A stretch of DNA of 63,577 nt, filler included, from Dugesia japonica (Eukaryota), in the NCBI GenBank assembly GCA_001938525.1. It is 6 parts of 6 records of this genome, joined end to end, with 100 filler letters (N's around TTAATTAATTAA, not from the genome) between each part and the next. Parts side by side here need not be neighbours in the genome. Positions count along the whole stretch, not along the records: positions 27,122 to 40,000 come from MQRL01599083.1; 5 more parts are not named here. One strand, 5' to 3'. This document shows positions 5,451 to 58,959 of the stretch, one piece after another (position 1 is the first letter of the stretch; each line of letters starts with the position of its first letter). The translations under genes and the position numbers were made by a program. The notes under the pieces are model-generated. The model worked only from the letters and a program-made list of their open reading frames with translations, did not search any database and was not told the origin of the DNA.

Positions 5451-7710
5451 AATATATGGGGAAATATTATTTAGTGACATAACAATAATGCTTCTCTTCA
5501 TAACAATTGACTGATTCATTTTGTACTGTTGTATTTTTGGTGGAATTTGATAATTTAATAAAATATTTCGCTCATTTTCAATTTATTGAAATTAGTTATT
5601 AAAAATATTTTAAAATTTTGTAATATATATTACTTAAAACTTAATGAGTAGTAGTTATTAATAATATTTTAAACTTTGTGATATTATGTTTATTTAAAAT
5701 TATTAAGTATTAAAATTTACGATTTCTAAATTTTTAAATAACGTCTTGCTGTTGAATCAATGCTCTTGTTGATTATTTCACTATTTAATATTTATGTGCA
5801 AATTATAAATTTAGGACATTTTAACAGGATTGTAAGATTTACGTAATTATGAAAGAAATATATTGGAGGTTGTGGCCATATTGCATGTTAACATAAGTGC
5901 GTTTGTCACTTACATTACATTCGAGAAGGTCTGAGATGTGANTTCATTACCTAAACGGTGAACATTAAAATTTGTGTGGTGCACTATAAAGTGTTTCAGT
6001 GTTTGTTAGTCTTGCGATGGTTATTAGTAACTTGAAGACATTGCATACACTGAAACTTTGAATTAACCATCACAGCGTGTAGAGTGATATTGTGGCAGAT
6101 GATATTTCGAATCCAATTCAGATTACAGCGACCTCCAATTTTTTATTTAGATTATTGTCTTTAATTCAAATTCAAAACATGCTAACTTTAAAAAAAGAGA
6201 AAAAGTACAAAATTTATTGCTAAACGAGTGAAATATCAAGAAGTTAGATAAGAATGCAAACAAATCTAACCCACATTGATTTCAGTAATCAAAGAAATAG
6301 TGAAATTAATAATAAAAGACAAGGAAAAATCATTGAAAAAATATTTAATTATCCAAAAGCAGAATTAATATCAAACTGAAAATAAATCTAAATTAAACAA
6401 AAAATCAGTTTTGTAAGAATAACTTGGTTATGGGTAATCACAGAGACCCAGGGAAAGAAAATGTTAAAAGGCATTAAAATTTCGTAACCGGAAAACTTTG
6501 CAACCATCAGAAGAACGACCACAAGGGTTGGAAAATTGGGCCAATAAGAACCTGAAAAATAAACATAAAACAAAGACACAATTATCATGTGCCATTCTAA
6601 AAATAGCTACCAATCAGAATTTCAGAACTCTTAGAAGATTGGCATCAGATCCAATGAAATTTAAAGGATTCGAACTCAAAATAACCGACCACAGTCGGGA
6701 TGCAACCAAAGTCCTATATAAGCCGCGAAAAGTTTAGTGAAAAAACAACAAAAATTTTAACTTTATAAAAATTACTTAACATTACCAGCATTATCGTCAA
6801 ATTTTACTTTACTAGTGCTAAACCAGGAGTACGTGAAGTCACTTTACTGTTTATCGCAGAAACTTGTAACTCAATTGAATTTCCCACAAGTGGATAAGGT
6901 ATTCTACTACCAGAAGAAAATTAGTGAGAAATTTAACACTGAAAATTTTCTGTGTACTATCCTCGTTGCAGAAGTAAAATCATATTAAAGTAAGTATTAG
7001 TTATGATGTAGTAAAAAGTGTTGTTAAATTTAATTTTAGCTGTATGAAATACAACGTTTATTCCGAAATTAGTTATTTATTTTTCAAATATATTTTTTCT
7101 TTCAATTAATAATAGAGAAAAATATCAATCGTAATATGCAATCGATAGTGTTCTGTGTTAATACAACATGTTGTTTTTCCGCCATAATACCGCAGCGAGT
7201 AATTTCCACTGTCCTTAACTATTGGCAACTTGACATGCAATTGCCACAGTGCAATCCAGAAAATATAATTAGCACGTGATCATAAATTTTAAGCAAGTGA
7301 GAGTAAACACGCTGAAACCCGTGGGTGGACACAGTTCTTATATCTACTGCGAACGCAAAAGGGAAGCGTTATAGAAATAAATGTGTTAACGTACACAAGG
7401 AGATGGAAGCTGCGCACGACCAAGAAAGAATTTGGAAATCGCAGGTAGAGTCGTTCGCCGAGATCATCCGGTCCAGCCATGACCATGAAAATAAACTAGT
7501 CAAGGATATCCTGCATCTTAAGGAAAGATCCTACCTCGAACCTCTCATGGTTGATAAGAGCACACAGACAAAATCCATATCGCGTGACTAACCTTTCTGT
7601 TTCTGGAAATAAAAAATCGAGTGTTGTAATCTTTGCCTTAGCGTGTATCACCTAAATTTTGATTAGGCGAATTCGATATCGATGTATTAATTATTTCTTC
7701 CCTATTATTA

Positions 7711-8862: not shown

Positions 8863-8962
8863 NNNNNNNNNNNNNNNNNNNNNNNNNNNNNNNNNNNNNN
8901 NNNNNNTTAATTAATTAANNNNNNNNNNNNNNNNNNNNNNNNNNNNNNNNNNNNNNNNNNNN
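8863..8962. other. Artificial scaffold linker N44-TTAATTAATTAA-N44
   Basis: Exactly 100 nt with a six-frame-stop palindrome; identical structure at five sites. Confidence 0.95.
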
Positions 8963-17326: not shown

Positions 17327-17426
17327 NNNNNNNNNNNNNNNNNNNNNNNNNNNNNNNNNNNNNNNNNNNNTTAATTAATTAANNNNNNNNNNNNNNNNNN
17401 NNNNNNNNNNNNNNNNNNNNNNNNNN
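17327..17426. other. Artificial scaffold linker
   Basis: N44-TTAATTAATTAA-N44. Confidence 0.95.
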
Positions 17427-18031
17427 CAATGCGCTAGATTTCAATGTTGGTAATATTTTTCTATTATTAGCTATAACATCTTGAGCAATTTTCATACCAA
17501 AACTACCAATACGTTTAAGAATAAGAAGCGCAAATCTACCTATTGTTCGCAACTAGCCGGAACCATACTGTTTTTCTACAAAGTAAGGCAATTCTCCACC
17601 TGCTTGGCTACTACTATAGATGAACATTTGTTGATGCAACTTAATTATTTTCGGATTTCTAATACCTTGGATTAAATCATTCTTCATATCTACAGGTGAA
17701 TATTGTGGTTTTTCTAATCCCAATGTTTTTGTCAAGACTTTATCGAATGTAACAGTTTTGATATTTTCTTTTAGCGAGAATTGAAAAAAATTATTTGCTT
17801 TGAGACTAATCTTAAATCGTTCAGAACCGCTTTCTGTTAAACATTTATTTAATTCTTTAATTTCTGTTATGTATAGTTCATCTTTCAACTGTATAGTATG
17901 ATTAATTACTTGAGGATATTCTATTTTAAATTTTACATTTTCTATTGGAGAATTTTCATTAAATAAAGTAAAGTAAATACGAAGAACTTTGTTATTCTCT
18001 CTGTGATTCTTATTAAAGTATCCTAATTTAC
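17427..18031 (-). mobile_element. Fragment of a second Polinton/Maverick: minor-capsid-like segment running into a small basic QxGGxLP..QxGxG protein
   Basis: Translation ...VTFDKVLTKTLGL...QQMFIYS resembles the Maverick minor capsid middle region; it continues as SQAGGELPYFVEKQYGSG*LRTIGRFALLILKRIGSFGMKIAQDVI, resembling the small amphipathic Maverick protein (QxGGGLPVF..QRGxG..F..A.P.LK). Recognised by eye. Confidence 0.6.
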
Positions 18032-18099
18032 NNNNNNNNNNNNNNNNNNNNNNNNNNNNNNNNNNNNNNNNNNNNNNNNNNNNNNNNNNNNNNNNNNNN

Positions 18100-20300
18100 T
18101 CACGTATAGCAACATGATCATTTTGATTGACACTCAACAACTTTTCTTTATGATTAATTGTTATAGTCACTTCCCAGGACATTTCAATGTCCTCACTATC
18201 GTCTCGCACCTTTTTGGTGGTAACGACGGAGCGATTTCGTGAAACACTCACTGAATGCCAATAAGAGAGTCATTAGCTGTGGAATTATAAAACATTAAAA
18301 AAGATATCAATAAATTAGCATCATAATCTCAATAAAAACTCCTCCGGCGAAAATAGTTATCATAATAGTTTAATTTGTTAATCTTGAAAACGTGTATTAA
18401 CTAAGTAAATATATAAACCGATTAGGGCGACGAAGATTTATTAAGCCATAAAATAAAAAAACTCGAAAACTAGTTATTGGAGTTCCTAACGCTCCATAAA
18501 TAATCATATATAAAATCGCCCATCTCAGACGGGATAGGAGATAATGGCATTGATGCAATGGGCGAGAGGTTATGCTCGGGGCCTGTCCAGTTTTAATAGG
18601 TCTGTCGCCCTATTGCGTCGCATTATCTCTCGTAATCAGCGTTTTCTAGAGGCAAATTAGATCGGGCCACTAAACCCCCAGCGTCCTGATCGTAAGGATT
18701 TGTAAACCGCTTAAACACCATACGGCTGGTATGTCGATCCAATACTAGAGACCAACGATATTCTGTCACAGCAAGATAAAATCAATATAAACACATTCAA
18801 GGAAATGAAGTGTATGAAATATGTAGTCTTAATTAAAGGAAGGCACAAGACTTAGTTAATGACGACACGATAAGAAAATTAAATTAATAACTTCATATAT
18901 TTAAAGAAACCAGGCACTAATTAAAATTAAAAGATTTTTTTAGAGAAACAACACTAATGAACAAGAATATTGATTAAGGTTCTAAATCCAAATCCACTAT
19001 GTTCGACTGTGGCAATAGGAATAATTCCTCGAAACAGATTAAATCCCTTTCATCTGGGAACAATATCTGGTATGAAGCCAAAATATGTCCTATTAGTGGT
19101 TTCTGCCGGGACCTCTCCCTTTCTTGACGAATAAATTTCAACGAAACTTTCAAAAGACTNGACATTATGCTAGACATATCGAATTAAATAAGGAATACTA
19201 ACAAGTTAGTGAATTCAAATTGGCCATTCTATAACCCACTATTAATGATGGTAACCAATATAATAAGAGAATTCTAAAAATGTGTCCCTTAACAAGACTC
19301 TCTTGGATGGTAATAATTGTTTGATCTATTTTCGAGGTACGGAACCCGTTATTTAAAATAAAACAGTATTGTCAGGATACCACCACTACTAGCCGAACTT
19401 ATTGATCTTATCGAGACGACCATTATCCATAATTTTATTCTATAATAGTAAAGTTTCTGACGTTGTTGTTCATTGCGCGGTAGAAAATTAAATCCCAGCT
19501 GGTAATAATTTATGTTTGTGAAACCCACCATAATGGTCGTCCTAGTGATCGTCAGGATGGGAACTAGTATTAATAGAAACAATAAGGGTAGTAATAGCAT
19601 TATCAGCAACTTTTAGTTTGATTTATTGTTAATAACAATAATCACGATAATAATGGTAATAATGACTGTATCAACATTAAAAATGATGAGAATAAATATT
19701 ATAATAATCATCATAATAATAGCATTAGTATAAAGCAACTAAAATAGTAAACAAAATAACGAAAATAGGAGCATAACGCGGTCATCGAGAACAGATAGTG
19801 TACTAATAGTAAAATTACTGTTAGGGGCCACAACACGACTAGAGACAACAATGTTAATAATTAATGATAATAATAATAATAATAATGAAGTGACAGTTCA
19901 TCATAATCATATTAATAATGTAATAATAATAATAGTTATAATTATGATAATTAAAATGTCAATAATAATAATACCAATAAGAATAGTAATCCTAAATATA
20001 TTTTATGGTAACCACTGTGTTAACCGAAATCGGCATTAGTCTCAGAATCAAGTATATATCGATTGGCTGATGAGTACAAAGCTTTCATTGATATAACGTA
20101 TTCGGTGGAATTACCTCTGTGATTAAATTTATCACTCACAGCTGCAGTTGAAACTTCAATTTCCTAATTATTTGTGAAATCTAGTTAATGTTAGTTAATG
20201 ACTAACAATGAGTAACAGTCCCAAGATGTTATTTCTGGCTTGTGTGTGCAGCCACTGAAATCAATCATACGGGGATGTGTGTAATTCATTGATTTATAGT
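18100..20300 (+). mobile_element. Possible 5' part of a degenerate LTR retrotransposon (LTR end, PBS, gag-like low-complexity region)
   Basis: PBS-like TGGTGGTAACGACGG at 18215, then GC-richer sequence and an AAT-rich low-complexity tract; no intact ORF. Confidence 0.35.
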
Positions 20301-23221: not shown

Positions 23222-23329
23222 GTGCAAAGATATTTTTTCATCGATTTTTCCACACAACTAAGAGGAATAAAGTCGCGCTGATTGCTGAACTATCTGTACC
23301 TTTTGTGCCATATGGTATAGTTCAAGAAT

Positions 23330-24280
23330 TCCAGTGGATATGCGAAAATACTATTAGAAGTGGGATAATGCCAGTAGATAATGAGAGAATACAAGTGGAT
23401 AGTGAGAGAAGACTAATGGGGATAGTGAGAGAAGACCTATGAATAATGAAAAGATATCAGTGTGGTGTGGGGAAAAGTCAGTAAGTGATTATGAAAAGTA
23501 AATAAAATTAGTCACTTTAAGAGAAGATCATTTCAGAGTGGGAAAATACCAGTGGATAGTGTGAGAAGAGCAGTGGAGGGGAAGAATACTAGTAGACAGT
23601 GAGAGAAGACCTGTAGATAGTGAGAGAAGATCAGTAGAGAGTGTGAGAAGAGCAGTGGATAGTGAGTGAATATTAGTGGATATTGGTAGAATACCAGTGG
23701 ATAGTGAGAGAAGACCTATGTAGAGAGAGAATATCAGTAATAAGTGAGAGAATACTAGTGGATGGTGTCAGAAGATCTGCAGACAGTGAGAGAATACCAT
23801 AAGATATTGGAATAATACTAGTGGATTGTGAGCGATTAGTAATGGATAGTGACAAAAGAGCTGTATGGATGGGAGAAGATCAGTAAAGAATTGTAAAAAA
23901 CCAGTGAATATTGAGAGAATATAAGTGGAGAGTAGAGATTACCTGTGGATAGTAGCAGAAGACCTGTATCGAGTGTGAGTAGATCAGTGGAGAGGTAAAG
24001 AATACCAGGAGAAGTGGTTGAAGACCAGTAGACAGTCAGAGAAGATCTGTAGAGAGTAATAGAATACTAGTAGAGTAAGGGAATACTAGTGTGGAGTAGA
24101 AGAAAGTCAGTGACTGTGACAGAAGACCATCTAAGAGTGAGAGTAATAAAGTAGGTGTGAGAGAAAACATGTGAAATGTAGTTGAAAGCTAGTAATAATG
24201 AGAAAAGACCAACGAAAAGTGAGAAAAAACTGTTAAGAAAGTTAGAGGACCTATGAAGAGAGAGGGGAAAAACAGTAAAT
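23330..24280. repeat. Degenerate ~21-bp purine-rich minisatellite
   Basis: Many diverged copies of approximately GAATACCAGTGGATAGTGAGA. Confidence 0.85.
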
Positions 24281-24339
24281 ACTTATACTGTTCGGCGATC
24301 ACATGATCATAATATTGGCCCGTGAAAATTCACATTGAT

Positions 24340-24535
24340 ATAACCCATGAGATGTTACCATTTCCATTGATATTATCATTAATATTGCCTGGGGGATGTT
24401 AACGTCAATATTAATTTTGTCTGGGAGATATTAACATTAATATTGATATTGCCCGAGGATGTTAACATAAATATGGCCCCGGGATGTAAACATTAACATT
24501 AATCTTAACATTAATATTCTCCAGGGCAACATCTA
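24340..24535. repeat. Short degenerate tandem repeat (ATATTGCCC...GATGTTAACATT)
   Basis: About 5-6 diverged units. Confidence 0.6.
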
Positions 24536-24659
24536 ATATAATAGGAATAGTAAGTCTTTGTGTATATAATGTTTAGGATGTTCTCTGGTTTTATAAGAGT
24601 TTTATTATTAGAAATGTCTACGGTTTTATAGAATTATACATATTCTTTAGGGTTAATGT

Positions 24660-26020
24660 AAACTTTACATTAAATCATATACATTTTAAAGCCAATACAT
24701 AAAAAACTATAATATTTCACATTAAAATTGCATTTAATCACACAAAATGTCTAAGTTAACTCATGAAAATTTCTAAATCAACACATAAAGGTATAATCCA
24801 TTGCACAAATTATAATCCATCACACAAAACTTTTACTTAACTCATGAAAATTAAAACTCCACACATGAAGATCACATAGAAATCATTAAAAAGGTTCATA
24901 AATTACAGAAGTAATCAATAACTTTCAAATTTATCGAAACATTGCATAGAAGTCAATAAAGATTTTCAAAGATTTACTAGAAGTCAATTGAAGTCTTGAA
25001 AGATTACATAGAAGTCGTTAAAATTACCATTCATCATGCCAAATTGCATTCCGTCAAACAAAATTAACACTCAAGATGTAATGATTTTAAGCCAACACAC
25101 AAAAATTACATTTCATCACACTAAAACTGTAATTCAACGCAATGAAATTATATTTCATTACACAAATTGTAAATCAACACAAAAAAGTATAATCTATACA
25201 CTAAAATTATTTTAATCACACAAAATTTTAAGACATCTCATAAAACTTCTAAGCCAAAGCTTAAAATGTCTAATTCAGCACATGATTTCTAGTTTGTTAC
25301 AAAGAATTTCTCAGTCAACAGATAAAAATTCTAACCAACAAGTTAAACTTATAATCTGTAACACTAAAAAATATAGTTCATCACATTGAAATTTCTAAGT
25401 CAACGCTTTAAAATTATAATCTGTCACATTTATATTACAATCCATCACACAGAATTTTAACACATTACACAAAAATTACATTCTATCTCACCAAAATTAC
25501 ATTCAATCACAGTAAAATTCTACGTAGTCATAAAACTTCTAAGCCATTAGATAAAAATTATAATTCATCATGTTAAAGTTATATAAAAGTCATTAAAATT
25601 ATCTTAAAATACACACAAGTCAATAAAACATTTCAAACATTGTATATTTCTGTTAAAAAGTTTTATAAATTACACAGAGATATTCAATAACATTCAAAAA
25701 TTACATAGAAAATAATAAAATTTCTAAGTCAGCAGATAAAAATTCAAACAAACAAGTGAAAATTATAATCTATCAGACTAAATATATAGTTCATCACATT
25801 GAAATTTCTAAGTCAACGTTTTAAAAGCACATTTCATCACATAAAATTCTAAAACAACACATAAAATTTTTAAGTCAACATGTAAAATATAGGATTCATT
25901 ATTGAAAATAAACATTTTAACATGGAAAATAATCACTTTGTCATATGAAATTATAGTTTTATCACAAACAATGATACTTCATCATAAAATATACAGGTAT
26001 CATCATGTTAAATACGCAAG
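24660..26020. repeat. Highly diverged A/C-rich minisatellite (AAAATTACATTCAATCACAC-like)
   Basis: Recurring AAAATT..AATC..CAC units, with a near-duplicate block at ~25310-25410 and ~25720-25825. Confidence 0.65.
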
Positions 26021-27021: not shown

Positions 27022-27121
27022 NNNNNNNNNNNNNNNNNNNNNNNNNNNNNNNNNNNNNNNNNNNNTTAATTAATTAANNNNNNNNNNNNNNNNNNNNNNN
27101 NNNNNNNNNNNNNNNNNNNNN
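27022..27121. other. Artificial scaffold linker
   Basis: N44-TTAATTAATTAA-N44; truncates the left end of the Polinton. Confidence 0.95.
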
Positions 27122-27480
27122 AAATGTTAAATGCGAAATGTTAAATGCGAAATGTTAAATGTGAAATGTAAAATGTTAAATGTGAAATGTAAAATGTGAA
27201 ATGTTAAATGTGAAATGTAAAATGTGAAATGTTAAATGTTAAATGTGAAATATAAAATGTTAAATGTTAAATGTGAAATATAAAATGTTAAATGTGAAAT
27301 GTAAAATGTAAAATGTAAAATGTAAAATGTGAAATGTTAAATGTTAAATGTTAAATGTGAAATATAAAATGTTAAATGTGAAATGTAAAATGTTAAATGT
27401 TAAATGTTAAATGCGAAATGTTAAATGCGAAATGTTAAATGCAAAATGTCAACTACTAAAATATTTCAAATGTTAAATTT
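27122..27480 (+). repeat. Left inverted-repeat arm: tandem heptamer array AAATG(TT/TG/TA/CG)
   Basis: Continuous 7-bp periodicity plus one interrupting motif AAATGTCAACTACTAAAATATTTCAAATG (~27444-27472). Confidence 0.92.
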
Positions 27481-27492
27481 TTTCTATAGAAA

Positions 27493-28113
27493 ATGAGTGC
27501 ACAGAAAAAAGTTATTGAAAAAGAAAAAGTAACATCTGAATTAACTTTAGTTACATTAATGAAATCAATAAAAATTTTTGATAAAACAGAAGAGTTGAAT
27601 ATTAATGATTTAAAAGAATATTTAAAAATTGATTTAACAAAAAAAACCGCAGAAAGCTATTTAAAATATCTTAATGATTTGTATTTAAAATAAGATGAAT
27701 TAAATTTAACACAAAAAATTAAAAATTTGTTTAAAAAGATAATAACTATTGTTGTTACAAAATATACAGAAAGTGAAAGTCGTGGTTTATTACTTGAATT
27801 ATTAAATGAAAGAAACGAAGCATATTTAAAAATTATTGAAAAACAACACGGAGATCACCAAAAAGAAAGAGATGAACATAATATAGCTTTAGTAAAATTA
27901 AAAGAAAAAGCAAAACCAATAAAAATTAATGATGTTATATTATCAGTTTATTATTCTCCTAGTGAAAAGAAAAATTTAACCAGTAAACGTTTTAATGATT
28001 TAGTTGAAAATTTAGATCTAGATAATCTTTCAACTGAAAAATTTACTCGCCTACCAGCTTTAAAAGAAATTACTGGAATTAATAGAGTACATGCTAAAAA
28101 AGATTCTAAATAA
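27493..28113 (+). pseudogene. Polinton orphan ORF (~206 codons, K/E-rich helical) with one premature stop
   Basis: Track ORFs 27493-27693 and 27727-28113 are in the same frame, separated by TAA 27691-27693; start context TATAGAAAATG. Confidence 0.65.
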
Positions 28114-28114
28114 A

Positions 28115-28423
28115 ATGGATACAGTTTTCTATAAAATGTTAAATGAATATAATTTTAAAAACAACTCTATTAAAAATTTTTGTAAAGTAAATAATGTCAA
28201 CGAAAAAACAGTAAAGAAATATTTAAAGAAATGGAATATTGATTATAATAANNNNNNNTGGGATCCATCTAGAAATTTACAAAGAAATTCATATGGAAGT
28301 TTTATTTCTGTAATTGATAGATTTGGAAAACAAGCAATAATTAAAAAAGTTTATGATGGTAAAAATAATTATCAAGAATTATTAAAAGAAATGAATAATT
28401 CAAAAAAGTATACAGTAACATAA
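28115..28423 (+). CDS. Polinton small basic ORF, possible helix-turn-helix protein
   Basis: ATG at 28115 (TAAAATG overlapping the previous stop); SIKNFCKVNNVNEKTVKKYLKKW is HTH-like; contains a short gap. Confidence 0.5.
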   Translation: MDTVFYKMLNEYNFKNNSIKNFCKVNNVNEKTVKKYLKKWNIDYNXXXWDPSRNLQRNSYGSFISVIDRFGKQAIIKKVYDGKNNYQELLKEMNNSKKYTVT

Positions 28424-28545
28424 GATATGATAAGCTAAGATAAGATAAGATATGGTTTATAGTAACACAATAGTAACGCAAAATACAATAAAATATAACA
28501 GCGAAGCCAACATAGTGACAATACATTAAAATATTTCTTTATAAA

Positions 28546-29581
28546 ATGGACAGTATAGATTTAGATGATAATATTCAATTTTCACATACAGCAATTAAAA
28601 ATGATATAATTAAAATTTCACCTTCATCAGGTTCAATTAATAATTTAAATTCAAATGGTGATATCGTATTTCAATCTCTCCAATCTACAAATCCATTAGA
28701 CATTTGCAATTCATTATTATATTTAAGAATTGAAGTTACAATTCCAGAAGCATCAAAAGATAAAATAAGCCTGGAAAATAATTTCTTTCCAAGTTTATTT
28801 AAATCTATGAGATTAACATTAGGTTCATCAAATGTAGAAACTATAAGTGATCCAGGTGTAGTTTCAACAATGTTAAATTTAATAACTACAACCGAAACAT
28901 GGAAAAAACAATATGGACAATTATCAGGTTGAATACCAGATGTTGATAATGGAGATTTAAAAAATAAAAGTTATGATATTAGAAAGAAACTTTATAAGAT
29001 TAATAAATTTGAAGGTTACTTTCAATTAAGAAATCTATTTGGATTTATGCAAAATTATAATCGAGTTTTATATAATACAATGATAGAATTTACATGTAAT
29101 AGTCAAATGGAAGATAAATTAGTATTTTATGGAGAATAATAATCTATTCATTCAAAAATCTACAATAATCACAAAAAGTGTTGCACCAGCACCAGATGTA
29201 CCCAAAAATTCTTATTTAAAAGGTATACAATTACAATTAAATAATACTTATTATCCAATTAATGAATGTAAATTTAACATGGAAAATAATAAAATGGTTT
29301 ATCCTTATATGAATTATATAAAATGTTGTCATGAATTTTTTACAGAACCACAATTATCATTTTTAGATTATAGTAATTTATATCAAATGTTTTGTTTTGA
29401 TACAAGTTCTCACGATGACAAAATGAATATTAATAATGTTGATGTCACACTTCACATAACAAAAGATCCAGATTTAAAAGGAACTCTTTATTGGTGTATT
29501 CTTGAAGAAAAANATATTGAAATGAAATTAGCAAATAATAAAATTGTTTTGATTGAAAATTTACGTGGAATAAATGTCTAA
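28546..29581 (+). pseudogene. Major capsid protein (double-jelly-roll/hexon-like), disrupted
   Basis: NLNSNGDIVF, SLLYLRIEV, LENNFFPSLFKSMRLTLG...VETISDPGVVSTM, SG*IPD, LRNLFGFMQNYNRVLYN, then after a frame change IQLQLNNTYYP, YQMFCFDTSSHDD, VDVTLHI. Motif order matches Polinton/adintovirus MCPs, but the central part appears missing. Confidence 0.8.
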
Positions 29582-30956
29582 TAAGAATTTCTTGTGTAAT
29601 AATTGTGGTAAAATATTATTAAAGAAAAACAAATCAAGACATTTAGATTTATGTATTAATCGCGTAACCCAAAAACAAAAAAAGAAAGGTGGTGATAGCG
29701 AAGCCGAAGTCGTAGGCGGAGATATCGAGCTAATGCGAGCACAAACAGGAGGTGACTTACAAAATTCAAGTGTAATATTTTCATTATTAAAACCTATAAC
29801 AACAGAAAAATATCCAGGAGAAAGACACTTGTTTAAGCATAATTATACAGGACCAGGAACTAGATTAGATATTAGATTAGATTCTGAAGGTAATCCAAAA
29901 CCTGGTGAAGAACCAATAAATCAAATTGATGCCGCTGCATTAAAACATGATTTAGCATATGCTAGTGAAGATATCTGAGATCGTCATATTGCTGATGTAA
30001 ATTTAATACATGATCTTAATAATATTGAAAATCCTACATTAACAGAAAAATTTCAAAGAGCTCTTGTAAAATTAGCTATGAAAGGTAAAATAATGATTGG
30101 TCAGGGTCATAAAGGACAAAGAAAAAGTAAAATTATTAAAGATGAATCTGAAGACGATGAGGATGAACCAGGACAAATATTATCAAAAGAACTTCATAAA
30201 GATTATAGAAAAACTAAACATTTTAGAAAAGTAATTGTTTATGAAAAAGATGATATTTGGTCTGCAGATTCAATATTTCAAGGCACAGAACGTAAAGGTA
30301 AAAATGTAATGTTAACAGTTATAGATCTTTATACAAGATTTGCTTTTATTGAACTTTGTAAAAATAAAACTGGAAAAGAAATAAGAGATGCATTTGAAAG
30401 AATTCTTGATAAAAATAATAGAACACCAAATAAATTATGGGTTGATCATGGTAAAGAATTTTATAATTCAACATTTAAATCTTTTTGTAAAAATAATAAT
30501 ATTGAAATCTATTCAACTCAAAATAAAGGTAAAGCTGTTGTCATTGAAAGATTTAACCGAACTTTTAAAAATAAGCTTTTTCAACATTTTACTGCCGTTG
30601 GATCTCAAGATATTACCGAAGTGCTAATAAATAAAATTGTTGATGATTACAATAACACTAAACATTCTAGTATTAATATTACACCTCAAGAAGCAACAAA
30701 AAATCCAGAAAATGTTGAAATTGAAATTCCAAAAGTTTATCCCAATATTATTAGATTTAATATTGGAGATCGAGTAAGAATTACTAAAATTGGAAAATCA
30801 TTTCCTAAAGGTTATACTTTTAAATNGTCAAAGAAAATTTATATAATTACAAAAATATTTCATGAACAACCATTAACATTTCAAATCTCAAATCTTAACG
30901 GCGACAAAATAATTGGAAGATTTTTTACAAATGAATTACAAAAAACTGCTTTATAA
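29574..30956 (+). pseudogene. Zn finger + parvovirus-type phospholipase A2 + retroviral-type (rve) integrase fusion, one in-frame TGA
   Basis: CNNC-x12-H-x3-C; HNYTGPGT...PINQIDAAALKHDLAY (PLA2 Ca-loop and HD motif); TGA 29976-29978 reads through in frame (DRHIAD...NPTLTEK) into integrase with D (WSAD), D (LWVDHGKEF), E (IERFNRT), YNNTKHSSI and FNIGDRVRI. Confidence 0.92.
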
Positions 30957-30961
30957 AAAAG

Positions 30962-31138
30962 ATGGATCACTTAGAAAATTATATGTTTGAAAATAACTGC
31001 ACCGATTCAAGTAAATATGAAGATTTATTAAAAGATTATATTGGAGAAAATCATGTTAAAGATTTATCATATGAAGCATATCAAAATATGGTTAAAGAAA
31101 ATGACTTATATCTGGAACAAAAATATTACAAAGTTTAA
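30962..31138 (+). CDS. Small acidic 58-aa ORF between integrase and ATPase
   Basis: MDHLENYMFENN...QKYYKV*; fills the intergenic gap; preceded by TTTATAAAAAAGATG. Confidence 0.4.
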   Translation: MDHLENYMFENNCTDSSKYEDLLKDYIGENHVKDLSYEAYQNMVKENDLYLEQKYYKV

Positions 31139-31873
31139 TAATAAAGTCCTTCCAAATAATTTTAGATTATTAATAATTGGTTCTTCAGGTTCAGGTAAAA
31201 ATTTTTTATTAATGAAAATGCTCCTGACACCTGAATTTTTAGATTATGATAATTTAATTATTTATTCAACAACTATCAATCAATTTGAAATTCAATTATT
31301 ATATCTCGGTTTAGAAAATGGATTAACTAAAGAAGAAATCAGTTTAATATTTGAAAAACAAAATATCATTCCAAATATTTATAATACTCCACATCAAGTT
31401 ATTCAATATTTCTTAGAGAAAAAATTAGTTACTAAAAAATCAAGATAAATAATGGGTCCCCACTGGGTAGATGTTACTTTAAGTAATAAACCTGATGAAA
31501 TAATTTCTTGTGATAAACTTTCTAAAGATAAGAACAATCTTATAATATTTGATAATGTAGTTAATGAAAAAAATCAACAAGTACAAAAAAGTTATTTCAT
31601 AAGAGGTCAACATTCAAATTGTAATGTAATTTATATTTCACAAACATATTATCATTTAGATAAAAATTCTATCATAAATAATTCTAATTGTTACATTTTC
31701 TTTAAATTAAATAAAACTGATAGAGATAATGTTTATCATGAATTATTTTNNNNNNNNNNNNNNNNNNNNNNNNNNNNNNNNNNNNNNNNNNNNNNNNNNT
31801 ACATTGGAAAACTAAATATAATTATTTTTATTTAAATAAAGAAACTGATGAAATGTTAGATGATTTATTCTGA
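31101..31873 (+). pseudogene. A32-like (FtsK/HerA superfamily) genome-packaging ATPase
   Basis: Walker A RLLIIGSSGSGK, Walker B LIIFDN, YFIRGQH (cf. RGRH), IYISQTYY; in-frame TAA at 31446-31448; after the gap the likely end is HWKTKYNYFYLNK...DDLF*. Confidence 0.9.
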
Positions 31874-31895
31874 ATGCTGATGAAATTTAGGTAAT

Positions 31896-32900
31896 TTATT
31901 TTGATTCAAAATATAATTTAATTTTACTAAAGTTTTTTTCAATTTTTCTAAATGACCAATCTGATTTTAAAACATCTAAATAATTTCTTGCGAACCGATG
32001 AAATTTAATTATTTTATTTACATAATTAATTTTTATGTTTATACCAATTTTATGTAAATGATTTTCTACATTATCATTACTTTTTAAAAATTTTTTCATT
32101 GTTTTTAAATAGTAACCTAATTGATAATAACTTATTAAAGTAATTCGTTTTCCAATATTAACATTATTATACCAATATTTAANATTATCATTTAAAGTTA
32201 CTAAACTTATCTCTAGGTTAGTTTCATTTTCTGGAGCTGTTATTACATTTTCTAAATTAAATGTATTAAGAGTTATTTCATTATTTATTGATTTTATAAA
32301 TTCTTTAATAATTTCATCTTCATCATTTTGAAGATATTCAATTGCATTTTTTTTCATTGTATTTTCATCATCAACAATTTCATTTTCATTTTGAATTTCA
32401 TTTTCATTTTCATTTTGTATTTCAACAATTTCATTTTCATTTTGAATTTCATTTTCATTTTCAACAATTTCATTTTCATTTTCATTTTGAATTTCAACAA
32501 TTTCATTTTCATTTTGAATTTCATTTTCATTTTCATTTTGAATTTCATTTTGAATTTCATTTTGAATTTCATTTTCATTTTCATTTTGAATTTCATTTTC
32601 AATTTCATTTTCAATTACACTTTTATTTTCATATTCAATAATTTCTTCAATTACAATTTTATTTTCATTTTCAGATTCAGATTCAGATTTAACATCTTCT
32701 TCTATAAATTTTACACCTCTAACTTTTTGTACTTTAGCTTGATTTCCATAGATAGATTTATCATTCCAATATTCTGGTTTTAAATTATTCAATCCATTCC
32801 ATTTACTTGTTAATGGTGAAGATTGTAAAAATAGATTAATTTTATATGCACAATGTTTACAACATAATTCACAAATCACTTTTCTAAGTTTTTCATTCAT
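31896..32900 (-). CDS. Polinton ORF with a central acidic (EIQNEN)n repeat
   Basis: 334-codon ORF: N-terminal CELCCKHC, repeat tract ~32340-32640, basic helical C-terminus. Confidence 0.7.
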   Translation of the reverse strand: MNEKLRKVICELCCKHCAYKINLFLQSSPLTSKWNGLNNLKPEYWNDKSIYGNQAKVQKVRGVKFIEEDVKSESESENENKIVIEEIIEYENKSVIENEIENEIQNENENEIQNEIQNEIQNENENEIQNENEIVEIQNENENEIVENENEIQNENEIVEIQNENENEIQNENEIVDDENTMKKNAIEYLQNDEDEIIKEFIKSINNEITLNTFNLENVITAPENETNLEISLVTLNDNXKYWYNNVNIGKRITLISYYQLGYYLKTMKKFLKSNDNVENHLHKIGINIKINYVNKIIKFHRFARNYLDVLKSDWSFRKIEKNFSKIKLYFESK

Positions 32901-32952
32901 TATCGATTTTCTATAATAAAAATTTAGTCTAACCTGTTAGCATGCTACCAGA

Positions 32953-33543
32953 TTATTGTATTCCTAGCTTAGCGCGCATTTCATTAATTACTTTAGATTG
33001 ATTTTCTAATATTAATTTTATATTATCATCTTTAGATTTTTTATTTTCAGATATCAGCTCATGAACATCATTTACCATTTTCTTAGAAATCATTAATTCT
33101 TCATCAGTTAAAATTTCATCATTAACAACTTTCTGTTGAAATACGAATAGTTTATTGTTAACACATTTAAGTTTTCTAATTAATTTTTCATATCTTTCTT
33201 TTCTAGATTTTATTAATGAAGTATTTAATGTTCCAATTACAGGTAAAACTGAAATTGAACCAGTTATAATTGTAACTCCTAATGCAGCAAAAGCCGCTCC
33301 AACTGGAGTAATTAATACTATACCAGCAATTCCAATTCCAGCAGAAATAAATATTTGTGTATATTTTATACCTGAATCTATTCTATTCCATCTTTTTTGT
33401 ATTTTCTTATTATGTTTAATTTTATCTTTAATATAATAAAGATCATTTTCAAAATCTTTAATTCTAGATAATGCAAGTTTATTTTTTAAATCTAGAATCG
33501 TATAATCTTCATGCAGGCTAGGATATTATTTTTCAGTGTCCAT
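32953..33543 (-). pseudogene. Polinton/adintovirus-type two-TM coiled-coil membrane protein (not in ORF track)
   Basis: MDTEK*YPSL...KKIQKRWNRIDSGIKYTQIFISAGIGIAGIVLITPVGAAFAALGVTIITGSISVLPVIG...KLFVFQQKVVNDEILTDEEL...; stop at codon 6, otherwise open for ~190 codons. Confidence 0.75.
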
Positions 33544-34975
33544 TTTCTTTACAATAAATTTGATTAATAAAAATTCTTTTTGGTAAAGTTATTTCTATAA
33601 AGTTTACATTTTCTTCAAAATATATATTAGCAATAACAAAAAAATATTTATTATTAGTCTCAATATATTCTTTTGGAGCATTATTATTTGTTTTAATGGA
33701 ATATTTAATATTTTCATTATCTGAACGACCTTCTATTCTAAAAGTAAAAAAAAATTTAAAAGGTAAATATAACTTTATAGAAATAACAAAAGGTTCTTCA
33801 AGATAAAAATATAATGAATATAAATCAGATTTTATTTACCTTTTCTTTTAAAATCTATTCTTTCTACTTTTTCACTAATATAATAATAACGAAGAATTTT
33901 TTCTTCAACTATAAAAACCTTAAATATTATGTCAGAAGCTTTTTCATTTTTAAAAGGTAAGTAATTATCAATTAACTCTTTTATACTTTTAAGTGTTAAC
34001 TCATCGCCATTTATAGAATAAGTTTTTATTAAATTATCAATTCTTATAATTTGAATATTATGGATTTCTGGGTTTATTCTTTCATATTCTTTAATTATTT
34101 CATCAGGAATTTTAAATATATGAATTTTAATATTTAAATTCTCTAAATAAATTTCTTTTGGTAAAATTATTTCAATATAATTTATGGTTTGCTTTGCGAT
34201 TTCTATGTTTTCTCTATAAATGTTAAATATTTTAGATGCACATAAAAATGAAACAGCAATATGATTTATTTTAATGACATACGTAAATTTTTCAATCTGA
34301 CATTTACCATCTATAGTTATAATAAGTTTTCTTTTAATATTTACATGTAAAACAATATGTTTACCTTTTCGTTTAAAATCAAAATCATTTACATATTTCT
34401 CCATATAACTAAATTCTTGATTAGAATTAATTGAAAATATTTCATCAACATTATTACTTTTAACATATGGTAAATAATTATCAAACATTTCTCTTAAAGG
34501 TTTTAATGTTACATCTGAAAGTTTTTCTTTATAATTTTTAAATAAAAGATTAAATCTATCAAAATGTATTTTATGAAGTTTAGATTTTATAATTTCAAAT
34601 TCTTTAGATAATCTATCAATAATTTCAAATTTAAATAAGTTAACACTTAATTCACCTAAATTAAGTTTTCCTAGTAAAACTATTTCAATATAATTTATAT
34701 TTACATCTTTATTAATTTCTGTGCTATTATGAAAGATATCCATTATATTATTAGTATTTATAAATGATTTTATAATATTATTAATTTTAATTGAGTAATT
34801 ATAAATTGCATAAATATTAGATACTCCAGAAATTTTTATAGTAACTTCTTCATTTAACTTTGTATGTAAATAAATACAAAAAGGTTTGTCACGATAAAAA
34901 GAAAACTGTTTAGGTATAAAATTACTTCTTTTAAAATCTAAATTCTGGACATATTTTTCCATAATACTTTTCACC
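33533..34975 (-). pseudogene. Protein of three tandem ~180-aa domains; frameshift at ~33835, 5' end probably deleted
   Basis: Repeats begin MEKYVQNLDFKR, MEKYVNDFDFKRKGK and SEKVERIDFKRKGK; shared motifs Y.IK.N, N(Y/F)IEI.L and TLK...E..DNYLP (repeats 1 and 2). The third repeat continues in a shifted frame to ...VNFIEITLPKRIF...NGH* at 33533. Confidence 0.7.
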
Positions 34976-37340
34976 TTCTTCTCCAGAATATCCACCTCTA
35001 ACTCCACGTTCAAATTTTAGGAAAGTATCATAAGTTTCTTGTTTAGCAAATTTTAATTTTTGTTTTGTAAATATCATTCCAGCTTGCCATGTTAAACCTG
35101 ATGCGGTATAGCAATAACATGGATCTATTTTATAAAATTCTAAACATATCTTTCTAAAATTTTCTACATAATCTGCTAGAATCAAAACATCTAATTTCAT
35201 ATAGTGTAACATATAATCCCAAAGATTTTTTTTATCTCGCATATCATTTAAAAATTCTTGATAATCATTGTCAGATATTCCTTTTTGTTTTAAAACACTA
35301 AAGAAATCATCTTTTTTTGGAATTTTTTTTTNNNNNNNNNNNNNNNNNNNNNNNNNNNNNNNNNNNNNNNNNNNNNNNNNNNCATAATCATATGGAAAAC
35401 TTGCTTTTTTAGGTCTTAAATCATGAGATGTTAATATTTCATGATTTCCTGATTTAATTAGTGTTTCACCCATTTTCTCAACTGAAGTTTTACATATTTT
35501 AAAAGAATCTAGAAATCTAATATTTTTATAATGAAATGAAATATATTGATCGTCAGAATGTGGAATTATTTTCTTTATTTCTTTTGGATGTTTCTTTAAA
35601 AGTTGTCTAAAAAATAAATGATTATCATATCCCATTGCATTATGAAAGTAACATGGTATAAATAAATTACTTTTATCTTGTTGATTACAATTTGAATGTG
35701 TATAACCACGGAATTCACCATTAAAATTATTGTATTCTTTAACTGGATCTTTTACGATTGGTTTTTCACAATAATAACAATTTGTGTTAGATACATATTC
35801 TGGACATGGTCCTATAATATTGTCACGCAACCTTTTAAAAATAACATCTTTAAATTCTTTATTAATATTTTCAAGAAACTCTATCAAAGCATTAACTACA
35901 TTTTTTCCTGAGAAATGATAGTATTTACTTTGTATTAAATTTGGATAATCTGATTTGAAATATACACCTAAACTTATTGGTTCTTGAATAACATTTTCTT
36001 TTGTGAAACACTCAAAATCACAATACATTACAAATGGTATTTTATTTTTAAAATAATTATTTTTAAATTCAAAATATTCCTCTCTAGGAAATTTTACTTT
36101 TAATGTTTTATGATGAATACATTCTTTTTGATGTTTTAATAAAACTTCTTCAGATGAATATTGATTCATACATCCGAGACATAAATGATTACCTTGTGAT
36201 ATATTAAGTAAAGTATGTACATTTCTAACTAATATATAATGACTTTTATAAAGTAATAAATTACATTTATTATCTTTAGGATTCGTTTTACATCATAATG
36301 TTTAATACGAATTGGTCTAATTTTAAATTTTCTATTTAATTAAAAAAACATTTATTTTAAAATTATTTAACTTTTCTAATTTCTTTACATCTTCAATTGC
36401 TGATGGAAAATTAATTCCTTCAGTTTTTAATTCTGGTAAATGTTTGATATAATTATTTACTCTTCTCGCATTATGAAAAATATGTTTATATGCGAGAACT
36501 GAATATAATAAACATTTATCATCTCTGTTTTCAATATTAATAACTCCATATTTCATTATTTCATTTGGTAATTCACAATAAGTATAAGAACCGCCAACTA
36601 ATGATTGATATTTTTTTAATTCTATTTTAAAATTAATCATATGATTAAAGTTCCAATTAGATTCACTTCGATCTTTATCTCGCATAAAATTTTCTACCTG
36701 TTCAAACATTTGATTTAATTTTTTAGGTATTNNNNNNNNNNNNNNNNNNNNNNNNNNNNNNNNNNNNNNNNNNNNNNNNNNNNNNNNNNNNNNNNNNNNN
36801 NNNNNNNNNNNNNNNNNNNNNNNNNNNNNNNNNNNNNNNNNNNNNNNNNNNNNNNNNNNNNNNNNNNNNNNNNCTAACAATTTCTTCTATGTGTGGTCTA
36901 ATCAATTCAGTTGATTTTAATTTATAAACTTCAACATCTCTTGTCATATATAATCTACTATTTAAATAAATATCAATATTATAATATGGATATGTTTCTT
37001 CATTAAAAACATGTTTAATATGACTTGGTTTTGTTTTCCAATTTTTTAATAATTTTTTAACTAATAACATATGCCTATCACTTTTACAATGTTCATTTAT
37101 TAATTCTTCATTTGCAAAATGTTTATCACAAATTTCACAATATAAANNNNNNNNNNNNNNNNNNNNNNNNNNNNNNNNNNNNNNNNNNNNNNNNNNNNNN
37201 NNNNNNNNNNNNNNNNNNNNNNNNNNNNNNNNNNNNNNNNNNNNNNNNNNNNNNNNNNNNNNNNNNNNNNNNNNNNNNNNNNNNNNNNNNNNNNNNNNNN
37301 NNNNNNNNNNNNNNNNNNNNNNNNNNNNNNNNNNNNNCAT
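34975..37340 (-). pseudogene. Protein-primed family B DNA polymerase, N-terminal and exonuclease portion only
   Basis: C2H2 finger YCEICDKHF..EHCKSDRH, GGSY..LP...INIENRDDKCLLYSVLA, ExoI YCDFE, EndoVII-like CYYC...FRGYTHSNCN, ExoII HNAMGYD, FLDSF, FPYDY, ExoIII YMKLDVLILAD, DPCYCYTASGLTW, ERGVRGG; stops before the polymerase motifs; two gaps and a frameshift. Confidence 0.92.
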
Positions 37341-37416
37341 TTTTATTTTCTTCTTTTTTTATTATAAACAATTTAATCATACCTCTTAAATTTCACCTCT
37401 TAAATTCTTATGTTGA

Positions 37417-37880
37417 ATTTCGCATTTAACATTTCGCATTTAACATTTAACATTTAACATTTCGCATTTAACATTTCGCATTTAACATTTTGCATTTAAC
37501 ATTTCGCATTTGAAATATTTTTGTAGTTGACATTTTACATTTCATATTAACATTTCACATTTCGCATTTAACATTTTACATTTCACATTTAACATTTCGC
37601 ATTTAACATTTAACATTTAACATTTTACATGTCACATTTTACATTTTACATTTCACATTTAACATTTCACATTTAACATTTCACATTTCACATTTCACAT
37701 TTAACATTTCACATTTAACATTTAACATTTCACATTTTACATTTCGCCTTTGAAATATTTTTGTAGTTGACATTTCACATTTCGCATTTTACATTTAACA
37801 TTTCACATTTAACATTTCGCATTTAACATTTCACATTTAACATTTCGCATTTAACATTTTACATTTCACATTTGAAATAT
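37417..37880 (-). repeat. Right inverted-repeat arm: tandem heptamer array (AA/CA/TA/CG)CATTT
   Basis: Reverse complement of the left array, including the motif TTTGAAATATTTTTGTAGTTGACATTT (~37509 and ~37749, partial at ~37871). Confidence 0.92.
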
Positions 37881-38879
37881 TTTAAGGTATGGTATAAACC
37901 TTTTACTCAAAAATTCTAGGGTTAAAAAAAACCCTGAGTGAATTTAGGGTATTTTCCCTATACATATATATAGTATATATCTCGCTATATATTTCCCTAT
38001 ATATATTTCGCCCGCACGGTCCAAAACGGCGTTCCAGTTCTTTTTTAAAAATATTAGGTGAAAAGGTTTCCTATTAGTTTTGTTTTTCAATTCCAACTCC
38101 TCTGACTTTCCAATTAACGAAAAAAATATAATTTAATTTTTTTGTTATTTAAAAAAATGTATTTTGCACATATCTTTTTGCAATTTGAATATTTTCCAAA
38201 GAAATTCGAACTTATTTACACAGTAGGCTTTATGTTTCAAAAGTATTTCAGAAACCAATTCATATTGTCACTTTGATTTTTGTTTATTTTCGATATCAGT
38301 TAGCTTAGGTTTAGTGTGTGATTTCGATATTTTTAATGAAGATTTAGTGTTATTTTGTATTATATAAGATTTTTTTAGTATTTAGAAGTTGACTTCTTTT
38401 ATTTTTAGTATTTAATAGTGTTTTTTATGTTTTTAAGTTTTCGCAGTTTCATAAATATTTTATATTTTTAGTTTTCCATAATGTATTATAATATTTCTTA
38501 TATTATTTGATGTTTCCTATATTTGTTTAATTTAGGTATTTTATTTGTAGTGCATATTTTGAATTCATGGTGTTTTCTGTGTATTTCATCCGTCGTTTTG
38601 AAAACCGATTTATTTTTGTTCGACATGCAAAATATTTATAGAAAAGGTTATATAATTAATATTTCCTATTTGAAAATTTAATAAAAGCGTAGCCAAATGT
38701 CTCAAAAAACAAGCTTTTGGAATATTTTGGTCCTACTAAAAGAACAAAAGAAAATCCTAGAAATTAAGTAAATGTTGTAAATAAAGAGGCAAGTGGAACT
38801 GCTACAGTAATCTTGGTTGAAATCGAACTTATGATGGAACCATCATCATCCAAAGACTTGAATAAACTACTAGTAGGTA

Positions 38880-39965
38880 GATAGTGCAGCACGGGAACAG
38901 TAACCTCCCCCCGCCGCCAACTGTTCTTGACAATTTAACTGTTTTAATGTTTTTGACAAGTAGGTTTTTGATTGGAAGTTACGAATACATAAAAAAATCT
39001 TTCGAATTTTGGTTGGAAAGGTCGAATATCGAAATTTTGTTTTTTTAAATTTTTCGGTCAAATTTTATTGTACGGTTTCGAATAATAAAATTTGAATTTG
39101 GTATTGATGGTCATATAATTATAAACTAAATATCTTTTGTATAGGGTTTGCTATGTAAATGTTTTTAGTTTCCAAGATAAAGGTAGCGCAGCACGGGAAC
39201 ATTTTGACTTGTTTTTCAAATTTCTTGGCCAATATTTGTTGTATGATCATGAAAATGATGGCATTTAATTCAAATTAAAATTCCAAAAATTTTTTTTATA
39301 GGGTTTGTTGTAAAAATAGTTTTAGTTCAAAAGATAGAAAATTCACAGGAGCCATGTCGCACTGAGGATGAAAAATTAATTTTTCGAGAAATACTTATGA
39401 TAATCAAACAAATTTGATATCAGTGAACTCAGAATTAAACACTTAACATTTTCTACATAGGGTTTGCTATATAAATATTTTTAATTTACAAAATAAAGGT
39501 TGTGCAGCACGAGAACACTTTGACTTGTTTTTTAAATTTCTCGGTCAAAACGTATAGTATTGCTTCACAAATAGTACTATTTGATTTAAAATGAAATTCT
39601 AAACATATTTTGTATAGATTTTGTTGTGTAAATATGTTTGGTTCAAAAGATAGAAAATTACCGGGTACCATGCTTCACCTTAGATAAAAGAAATTATTTA
39701 CTCTGAAAGTACTTATACTAAGTAAACAAATTTAATTTCGTTGAAATCAGAATAAAAAACTGAACATATTTTGTATAGGCTTTAGACTATAAAAATCCTT
39801 CATTCAAGAAATAATATATATAATTATATAATTAATTATAAATTATAATCATAATCAAAATAATAATAAATTTCAAATGATTTTCTAACTATTTAACTCA
39901 GAATTAAAATTTGAACATGTTTCATGTAGGGTTTGCTGTATGAAAATTCTTCGTTCAAGAAATAA
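38880..39965. repeat. Diverged ~310-bp tandem repeat
   Basis: GCAGCACG(G/A)GAAC at ~38886, 39188, 39504; AAAAGATAGAAAATT at ~39329 and 39645; recurring TAGGGTTTG. Confidence 0.7.
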
Positions 39966-40000
39966 TATATAATTATATAATTAATTATAAATTATAATTA

Positions 40001-40100
40001 NNNNNNNNNNNNNNNNNNNNNNNNNNNNNNNNNNNNNNNNNNNNTTAATTAATTAANNNNNNNNNNNNNNNNNNNNNNNNNNNNNNNNNNNNNNNNNNNN
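40001..40100. other. Artificial scaffold linker
   Basis: N44-TTAATTAATTAA-N44. Confidence 0.95.
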
Positions 40101-52260: not shown

Positions 52261-53159
52261 AAAATTTAAAATTTTTGACCTTTTTTGAAAATTTTTCTGG
52301 AAATTGCAATTAGTTATTAAATAGATTTTAAAAAATCGATTTCAGTCAAACAAAAAAATGTTTAACTTGTTTTAATTTGTTTAGAAAAAAAAAATTATTT
52401 TTGGGAGTACAGGAATAGTGGCACTCAACCTCTGCACACATTCAATAGCCCCCCCGTGACGCCATATATTAATAAAAGAAGACTGAGTGTGACCTAGTAT
52501 GATATGCTTTATATTTNAAATAATATAACTATTTCAGTATATTTTAATCATCTGATTATCTTCTGATTTTTTGCTTTCTCCTTGGTTCTCCTTGCTCATT
52601 TCTAATCATGCTTGTTCTTTGGTTTTATGGGTTTCTTTTTTCATTTTGATAGCCAATATCCAAATACAATGTTACAAAATAATAGTTCAACATAGAAAAT
52701 ACTGATCTTATCATTAAAAATATTTATCTCAACATTTAAAATATTAGTTTCAATAGATAAATTATTGTTTCATCAATAAAAACATGGGGTTTTATAATGA
52801 AAATGTGCATGTTGTAATGTTAAATATAGGATTTATCATGAAAATACTGGTTTTACCAATAAATATGAGTTTTATAATGAAAAGTTTGGTTTTATCATTG
52901 AATATTAGATCAATAAGTTCGATATATCCAATACACTACATTAGGATTTATTGATCCTTTTAACACTTAGACCAACACAAAGACAAACATGTAATACTTA
53001 CTTAATTATTTCTTATTCAAACTATATTTCGCTTCATTATCAGTAAGTTTCTTTTATTTAAGTTAGAAAAAAGATAGGTAAGGACAAGAGTGAGATGGAT
53101 CAAATTTACTATAACTCGTAAGATTTAATCTGAAATTTTAATGTAGTTGATAAACATTG

Positions 53160-53490
53160 TCGAAAACTGCACAGTAGTCAATAAATATTTTATGAAATTG
53201 CACAGAAGTCGATAAAAATTATCTGAAATTGCACAGTAGTCGATAAATATTTCAAAGTCCTAGGTGAAAGAATGGGAAAATAGTTCAATTATTGCATAGA
53301 AGTATCGAAATATTTTATGCAATTGCACAGTAGTCGATAAAAATTTTATTAAATTGCACAGTAGTCGATAAAAATTTTATTAAATTGCACAGTAGTCGAT
53401 AAAAATTTTATGAAATTGCACAATAGTCACAAATTATTTTATGAAATTGTATAGAAGTATTAAAACATTTTATGAAATTTACATGAAGTA
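53160..53490. repeat. 31-bp minisatellite AAATTGCACAGTAGTCGATAAAAATTTTAT(T/G)
   Basis: About 9 head-to-tail copies, near-perfect at ~53320-53420. Confidence 0.88.
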
Positions 53491-54619: not shown

Positions 54620-54719
54620 NNNNNNNNNNNNNNNNNNNNNNNNNNNNNNNNNNNNNNNNNNNNTTAATTAATTAANNNNNNNNNNNNNNNNNNNNNNNNN
54701 NNNNNNNNNNNNNNNNNNN
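54620..54719. other. Artificial scaffold linker
   Basis: N44-TTAATTAATTAA-N44. Confidence 0.95.
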
Positions 54720-58930: not shown

Positions 58931-58959
58931 AGAAAAGTAAATGCAAACTTCTGGAATAA

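Follow-up and report, generated by a model that had tools for sequence, protein, structure and literature searches.

A defective Maverick/Polinton, probably of a Beta-like type, with a fused PLA2-integrase in a Dugesia japonica genome assembly

A 63,577-nucleotide (nt) stretch of Dugesia japonica DNA (assembly GCA_001938525.1), referred to here as the window, contains at positions 27,122 to 37,880 (record MQRL01599083.1) a tract of tightly packed genes that a first-pass annotation, made from the sequence alone, had read as a compact endogenous virus of the Polinton/adintovirus kind. We have asked what this element is and how much of it is left. With a probability of about three in four, it is a defective integrated Maverick/Polinton (adintovirus) of a Beta-like type, from which the polymerase domain and a portion of the capsid gene disappeared after insertion. 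The names Maverick, Polinton and adintovirus are used interchangeably in 10.64898/2026.06.19.733378.

The element comprises about 11 intron-less frames in two convergent arms, six on the plus strand (27493-31835) and five on the minus strand (37340-31896). The first-pass annotation had counted nine, five and four. The packing and the convergence were borne out, and the count rose with the addition of an open reading frame (ORF) of 58 amino acids (aa) and the splitting of a repeat gene between two frames. Long stop-free frames tile 27493-37340 (9602 of 9848 nt covered), and the purine skew reverses at the junction of the arms. When the element was shuffled 200 times, the longest ORF attained 135 aa at most (mean 82), and the observed frames of 325-453 aa are therefore not due to chance. 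The codon-position guanine-cytosine (GC) content was of the coding type in 9/9 frames tested, and AATAAA was located near 6/10 gene ends, against a background of 0.17.

Three of the four genes that the annotation had named by motifs, encoding the major capsid protein (MCP), a phospholipase A2 (PLA2)-integrase and an A32 ATPase, were recovered with Pfam, and the fourth, the protein-primed polymerase gene (pPolB), with homologues. These core genes and the layout match the Polinton/adintovirus kind that had been proposed. For comparison, contigs from bacterial and archaeal genomes were scanned, giving 38 loci, of which L001-L027 were compared. Maverick genes occur on L001, L002, L006 and L009, contigs that are filed in bacterial or archaeal metagenome-assembled genomes and are probably of eukaryotic or viral origin, placed there by mis-binning. 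Two of them, L002 and L009, are near-complete elements that differ in capsid class.

The PLA2-integrase scored above the cut-off with both PF08398 and PF00665 (rve, E 9e-11), and the PLA2 catalytic residues and the integrase DDE residues are conserved. The search for relatives used the fusion itself as query, so that its ranking favours fusions; it returned 262 proteins, the best being 54% identical and the named ones originating from Oculina patagonica and Hydra vulgaris. Among the 120 of 262 relatives listed, both domains were found in 87 (precomputed Pfam), PLA2 in 103 (our own profile) and a chromodomain motif in 11. In a quick integrase tree of 63 rows, which included the top 45 and 8 other matches of the 120 listed together with 9 loci, the window occupied a long branch (0.88) within a 46-row group (Shimodaira-Hasegawa approximate likelihood ratio test, 100) containing 45 fused proteins, with the coral fusion and protein P0105 falling outside; the clade partly reflects this choice of rows. 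Judged by sequence, the fusion is widespread in the databases. No description of it was found in the open-access literature searched, most subscription papers and Repbase lying outside that scope, which makes this weak evidence. Elsewhere, PLA2X is presented as a gene of its own that typifies the virion modules of the Alpha type (PMC8502044), and phospholipase as common in one Maverick/Polinton group (10.64898/2026.06.19.733378).

The two pieces of the broken capsid gene scored weakly on PF21738. They matched the profile of their own family at 1e-65 and 3e-38, covering positions 9-214 and 299-424, with about 85 profile positions absent near 29123-29139. The N-terminal piece had 134 relatives (best 44-54% identical), 42 of them 400-490 aa long. 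We have aligned 49 of the 134 and folded the best one, the intact P0132, and not the window's own broken gene. Its model (pLDDT 91.9, pTM 0.90) had double jelly-roll capsid or scaffold proteins as its top 16 structural matches among 48,161 chains (Z 27.2 to 9.4), the best being PBCV-1 (Z 27.2, root-mean-square deviation 3.1, 363 aligned) and unrelated rows staying at Z <=8; a viral structure library agreed with this result. According to the P0132 model, the capsid family of the element folds as a double jelly roll, the fold by which the annotation had proposed to check its capsid gene, and the absent positions correspond to four strands and a linker helix. The window shares its capsid class with L002 (454 bits vs 60 for the L009 class). 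The capsid profile had no match among PDB sequences, nor did a capsid relative among phage records.

The ATPase, when read with X, matched PF04665 at E 2.4e-8, above the cut-off. It is 28% identical to the L002 ATPase, from which both Walker motifs differ at a conserved position. A frameshift at its start was considered and rejected, as the main frame aligns with relatives from ~31071-31110; the frame at 30962-31138 is therefore a separate ORF.

The remaining piece of pPolB had no Pfam polymerase match and no match among PDB sequences. It has 11 longer relatives, 25-33% identical over ~600 homologous residues (E to 1e-58). The alignments end about ten residues past the RGG motif, and motifs A, B and C are present further on in 8/11 relatives. 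A profile built from 10 relatives matched the window at its positions 163-779 of 1204, with motifs A, B and C near 820, 981 and 1081. Profile positions 780-1204 had no match anywhere in the window, where none of motifs A, B or C was seen in six frames. The OTU-like Cys and His motifs are common to 8 and 7 of the 10 relatives, respectively, and 0/8 relatives scanned matched PF03175. By way of these relatives, and hence indirectly, the element would possess a pPolB of the Beta type, OTU-bearing and divergent from pfam03175, the window itself being without the polymerase part. The exonuclease, OTU-like and endonuclease-VII-like regions were assigned by motif patterns. The domain order TP-vOTU-EXO-PALM is reported in PMC11161782, and an endonuclease insert in Maverick PolB is already in print (PMC10748475, PMC5803895). 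L009 pairs the non-PF03175 pPolB type, as in the window, with the other capsid class, suggestive of module exchange. One pPolB sequence, P0121, is labelled Sulfurimonas and is probably mis-binned.

Although its decay is modest, the copy is defective: the polymerase domain is absent, the capsid and ATPase genes are broken, and the PLA2-integrase carries a stop. Among 3058 readable codons we counted 9 inner stops, of which 4 are isolated and 5 lie within 14 codons of pPolB (36295-36334). Five independent nonsense changes in pPolB were rejected, as these stops are clustered and another frame is open there. An alternative genetic code was also discarded, since TAA and TGA both occur as inner stops and both serve to terminate genes. 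Counting 4-5 stop events, the divergence would be 0.7-0.9% (95% range 0.2-2.0%), and 1.5% with all 9 stops, values that assume equal substitution rates and serve as a rough guide only. The lower estimate fits a fairly recent decay, in agreement with the fairly recent integration that had been proposed; the few lesions per gene, which had also been claimed, hold for the point stops and not for the two large gaps, in pPolB and MCP.

Genes expected in a complete relative were sought with profiles. Neither the penton profile (15 sequences) nor the pX-like profile (3 sequences) found anything in the element, and the ORF9 repeat scored a probability of 0.6 against the penton profile. There was no Pfam C5 protease match in 18 frames, and a 3-sequence protease profile reached a best E of 1.9 in the element. 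For these absences, loss is the simpler reading, though divergence may account for them as well. As parts of pPolB and of the capsid gene are gone, and no penton, protease or pX was detected, the element owes its small size mostly to loss, chiefly of those parts of the pPolB and capsid genes. The compact, near-intact virus of the first-pass annotation was thus not upheld. The features of the element are collected in Table 1.

Table 1. Features of the element, with positions counted along the window
Feature	Position	Strand	Remarks
Left subterminal array, 7-bp units	27122..27449	+	Part of inverted repeat; cut by segment edge
ORF1, 206 codons, charged	27493..28113	+	One in-frame stop at 27691; winged-helix Pfam score weak, below cut-off
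ORF2, 110 codons	28091..28423	+	Helix-turn-helix score weak (E 0.03), below cut-off
Double jelly-roll major capsid gene (predicted fold), broken	28546..29581	+	Stop at 28930; frameshift near 29123-29139
PLA2-integrase fusion, 460 codons	29574..30956	+	No C-terminal chromodomain; one stop at 29976, within PLA2 part
Small ORF, 58 codons	30962..31138	+	Unassigned; separate from the ATPase frame
A32/FtsK-type packaging ATPase	31053..31835	+	Stop at 31446; exact start uncertain
Arm junction, 31-bp duplication	31845..31904		AATAAA near both convergent stops
ORF6, 334 codons	31896..32900	-	Cys-rich N-terminus, long acidic Glu/Asn repeat, basic C-terminus
ORF7, 190 codons	32953..33525	-	Hydrophobic centre; no start codon at expected place
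ORF8	33533..33835	-	Third, partial copy of ORF9 repeat; other frame, no own ATG
ORF9, 376 codons	33832..34962	-	Two ~185-aa repeats, 36% identical; each predicted beta-sandwich plus helices
pPolB, 5' two-thirds	34931..37340	-	C2H2 finger, OTU-like Cys and His, exonuclease I-III, endonuclease-VII-like insert; polymerase domain absent
pPolB/ORF9 junction interval	34969..34981	-	pPolB similarity stops, ORF9-repeat similarity starts; putative deletion breakpoint or assembly join
Right subterminal array, same 7-bp units as left	37417..37873	-	Short spacers interrupt; spacers also seen once in left array
Candidate outermost right segment	37874..37982		Short hairpins and TA-rich tract ending CT; candidate terminus only

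The extent of the element has to be read against the construction of the window, which consists of six segments joined by five identical 100-nt linkers (8863-8962, 17327-17426, 27022-27121, 40001-40100 and 54620-54719), each made of two N44 tracts around a 12-mer that has stops in every frame. As identical linkers join separate segments, adjacency across them means nothing. The element lies on the segment 27122-40000 (GC 0.227), whose first base is already inside the 7-bp array; the left "boundary" is therefore a contig edge beside an artificial linker, and no demonstrated terminus. The two arrays are mutually inverted, with arms of 210 nt and 84-90% complementarity, and their 7-bp unit has no occurrence elsewhere in the window. 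Hence the inverted arrays described by the annotation were confirmed, and its left boundary was not. At the right end, the interval following the array has a folding z of -2.2, with 2/200 shuffles folding equally well. A dispersed repeat with a spacing of ~158/316 bp occupies the right flank (38879-39990, same segment). The rest of the window contains no DNA match to the element. Runs of N interrupt ORF2, the ATPase and pPolB, and some frames are undecidable there.

About half of the ORFs were left without assignment, as the annotation had stated, ORF1, ORF2, ORF6 and the small ORF being among them. None of nine element pieces matched PHROGs, NCBIfam gave sub-threshold matches only, and ORF1, ORF2, ORF6 and ORF8/9 had no match in loci L001-L027. 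ORF7 is homologous to conserved accessory genes (phmmer 2e-7 for L002 and 4e-11 for L006), the direct BLASTP comparison with the L002 homologue being not significant (E 0.2-0.4). In the Atlas it matched 197-aa clusters at 0.94, with a recognition score just below threshold; these clusters are eukaryote-dominated, Mollusca being the most frequent group in the top two, on few records. Its label would presumably be "cupiennin-like".

The similarity of the ORF9 and ORF8 repeats was not reached by any of 500 shuffles in each of three comparisons. The ATG at 34962 appears to be an internal Met of repeat 2, and ORF9 may have lost its start too. No homologue of ORF9 emerged from 4135 candidates, restricted to lengths of 206-658, at E<=1, nor from the Atlas. 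Its model had a pLDDT of 55, a best Z of 9.4 and TM-scores <0.4, with many tied beta-sandwich matches, among them C1q/TNF-like proteins, carbohydrate-binding modules, viral spikes and haemagglutinin heads. Given these ties and such a model, no specific fold or function is claimed; that ORF9 might be a spike or attachment protein is a guess.

We have then placed the element among its relatives. It is, by its sequence, a divergent but decayed member of the known Maverick kind, its closest relatives being mostly unnamed. The divergent and probably undescribed lineage of the first-pass annotation survived insofar as no near-identical record was found (best 54%); with 262 PLA2-integrase and 134 capsid relatives, the element is less isolated than had been supposed. 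L002 resembles it in the ATPase, in a PLA2 adjoining the integrase, in the ORF7 family and in the pPolB type, and also contains genes that we take to be penton-like and pX-like. In L006 the likeness lies in the convergent arms, with a chromodomain-less integrase facing capsid, pX-like, protease-like and ORF7-family genes. Together with an unnamed PLA2-integrase clade (P0001-P0045), L002 and L006 share with the element the same fusion or adjacency, the capsid class and the ATPase class; they differ from it in being <=54% identical and in gene order. Beside its Maverick genes, L002 has a 377-aa ORF (959-2092, minus strand) with no Pfam match, which we presume to resemble a Penelope-type reverse transcriptase (RT)/GIY-YIG fragment.

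Among described systems, the Beta-type adintoviruses (PMC8502044; Eupolintoviridae in ICTV taxonomy) resemble the element in pPolB relatives without PF03175 and with OTU-like Cys and His, in the rve integrase, the FtsK/A32 ATPase and the double jelly-roll hexon, and in a membrane-type accessory gene, whose family adjoins pX-like and protease-like genes in L006. Unlike the element, they are described with adenain, penton and GasderminX/pX, which were not detected here, with a polymerase domain and with a separate PLA2X. A hexon that clusters with the Terrapene exemplar and a Cupiennin gene are further marks of the Beta type. Mavericks/Polintons in general (PMC4028283, PMC8097293, PMC10748475) share intron-less ORFs in two modules, a layout usual for Mavericks (PMC8097293), as well as inverted repeats, pPolB, integrase, ATPase, MCP and decay. 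Their reported size is 13-25 kb vs ~10.8 kb visible here, and inverted repeats made of 7-bp arrays set the element apart from them. The Spodoptera Sf Mavericks (PMC5803895) have in common with it a PLA2 of parvovirus type and a PolB that weakly matches endonuclease VII; in their case, the PLA2 is encoded apart, by a gene termed "CAP", a chromodomain is present in the integrase and PolB has a match to polymerase B2.

Following the biology of the family (PMC4028283, PMC8502044), the ancestor of this copy would have inserted by means of its retroviral-type integrase, been copied from its terminal repeats by the protein-primed polymerase, and used the A32 ATPase to fill a double jelly-roll capsid with its DNA. 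Its PLA2 domain, fused to the integrase, would have aided the breach of the endosome as in parvoviruses. A deletion after insertion would have joined pPolB to the repeat gene, removing the polymerase domain and perhaps also penton, protease and pX. With part of the capsid lost and point stops gathered, autonomous replication and particle building would no longer be possible.

Several points weigh against this account. The left flank lies outside the segment, so that neither a left terminus nor a target-site duplication of 5-8 bp is visible, and no end motif of vertebrate Mavericks adjoins the right array. The penton (15) and protease (3) profiles are small, so diverged genes could escape them; even the capsid of L002 had a match in the window at only E 2e-7. 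The likeness to Beta-type adintoviruses was set by their descriptions, and the eukaryote marker genes of the window lie on other segments than the element, a common genome being an assumption. Moreover, the N runs reveal a patchy assembly, in which the two large gaps could be misjoins. If so, diverged copies would have been collapsed or misjoined and the genome would hold longer, more complete ones; the start of the segment within an array and the repeats near the junction, which could mislead an assembler, are compatible with this. We consider it quite improbable, as there is no N run at the pPolB junction or at the capsid gap, and the point stops in four other frames represent decay regardless.

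The defects could also be partly ancestral. In a non-autonomous family, the polymerase domain would have been lost first, the element then being copied with the help of intact Mavericks and this copy decaying later. Both arrays are retained, and polintons lacking polB and still mobile are reported in insects (10.1101/2025.02.07.637071). To this we give as little credence as to an assembly artefact: a single copy is in view, with no second one matched in the window, and the leftover 5' part of pPolB and the broken capsid resemble passive loss rather than streamlining. Slightly less improbable, and still unlikely, is a distinct, naturally reduced lineage, in which a virion-borne PLA2-integrase couples membrane escape to integration, the three jelly-roll-like domains of ORF9/8 form a vertex spike replacing penton, a maturation protease is dispensed with, and only the polymerase and capsid gaps are decay. 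Were the element no animal Maverick but a Polinton-like virus from a protist or a fungus (Gossevirus- or VC35-like), or else a viral contig caught up in the assembly, this would agree with relatives that are mainly unnamed contigs and with the phospholipase of about half of the Gosseviruses (10.64898/2026.06.19.733378). This we regard as very unlikely, given that the named eukaryote matches to the element's genes are from coral, Hydra and mussel, that the ORF7 clusters are of the composition given above, and that integration is indicated by the stops and by the repeat-rich flank. The decayed Beta-like Maverick/Polinton therefore remains our preferred reading.

Other segments of the window contain further features. 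A second Maverick remnant, of another type, lies at 17445-18269 (minus strand); its 3' part matches (E 3e-12) the small ORF that L009 has between its penton and capsid genes. A penton identity for its ORF 17553-18269 was not confirmed, the 15-sequence profile being among the checks, and was rejected. A nuclear RNase P RNA gene (5864-6137, plus strand; 40 bits vs a cut-off of 28) and a ClpX exon whose best matches are mitochondrial ClpX (4809-5120, plus strand; E 5e-22) show that their segment is eukaryotic; from the analysis, the host of the element would be an AT-rich eukaryote and probably an invertebrate. At 55428-58975 (plus strand) we found a decayed long terminal repeat retrotransposon pol, with protease, RT, RNase H and an integrase zinc finger in Ty3/Gypsy order, followed by an unassigned 138-aa frame. 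At 23325-25519 and 52676-53479 there are degenerate tandem arrays, whose periods are 21 bp and 31 bp.

A single decayed Maverick adds little, such fossils being the rule: 96% of 3,511 vertebrate Maverick loci are reported as degraded (PMC8097293). Because its capsid, ATPase and polymerase genes are broken, this copy does not make the question of a Maverick virion testable. Its interest, for specialists, could lie in two of its products. The orphan three-repeat protein of ORF8/9 is a candidate attachment protein, and would thereby bear on a poorly known part of Maverick biology. If the fused PLA2-integrase is packaged, entry and integration would be linked in one polypeptide.

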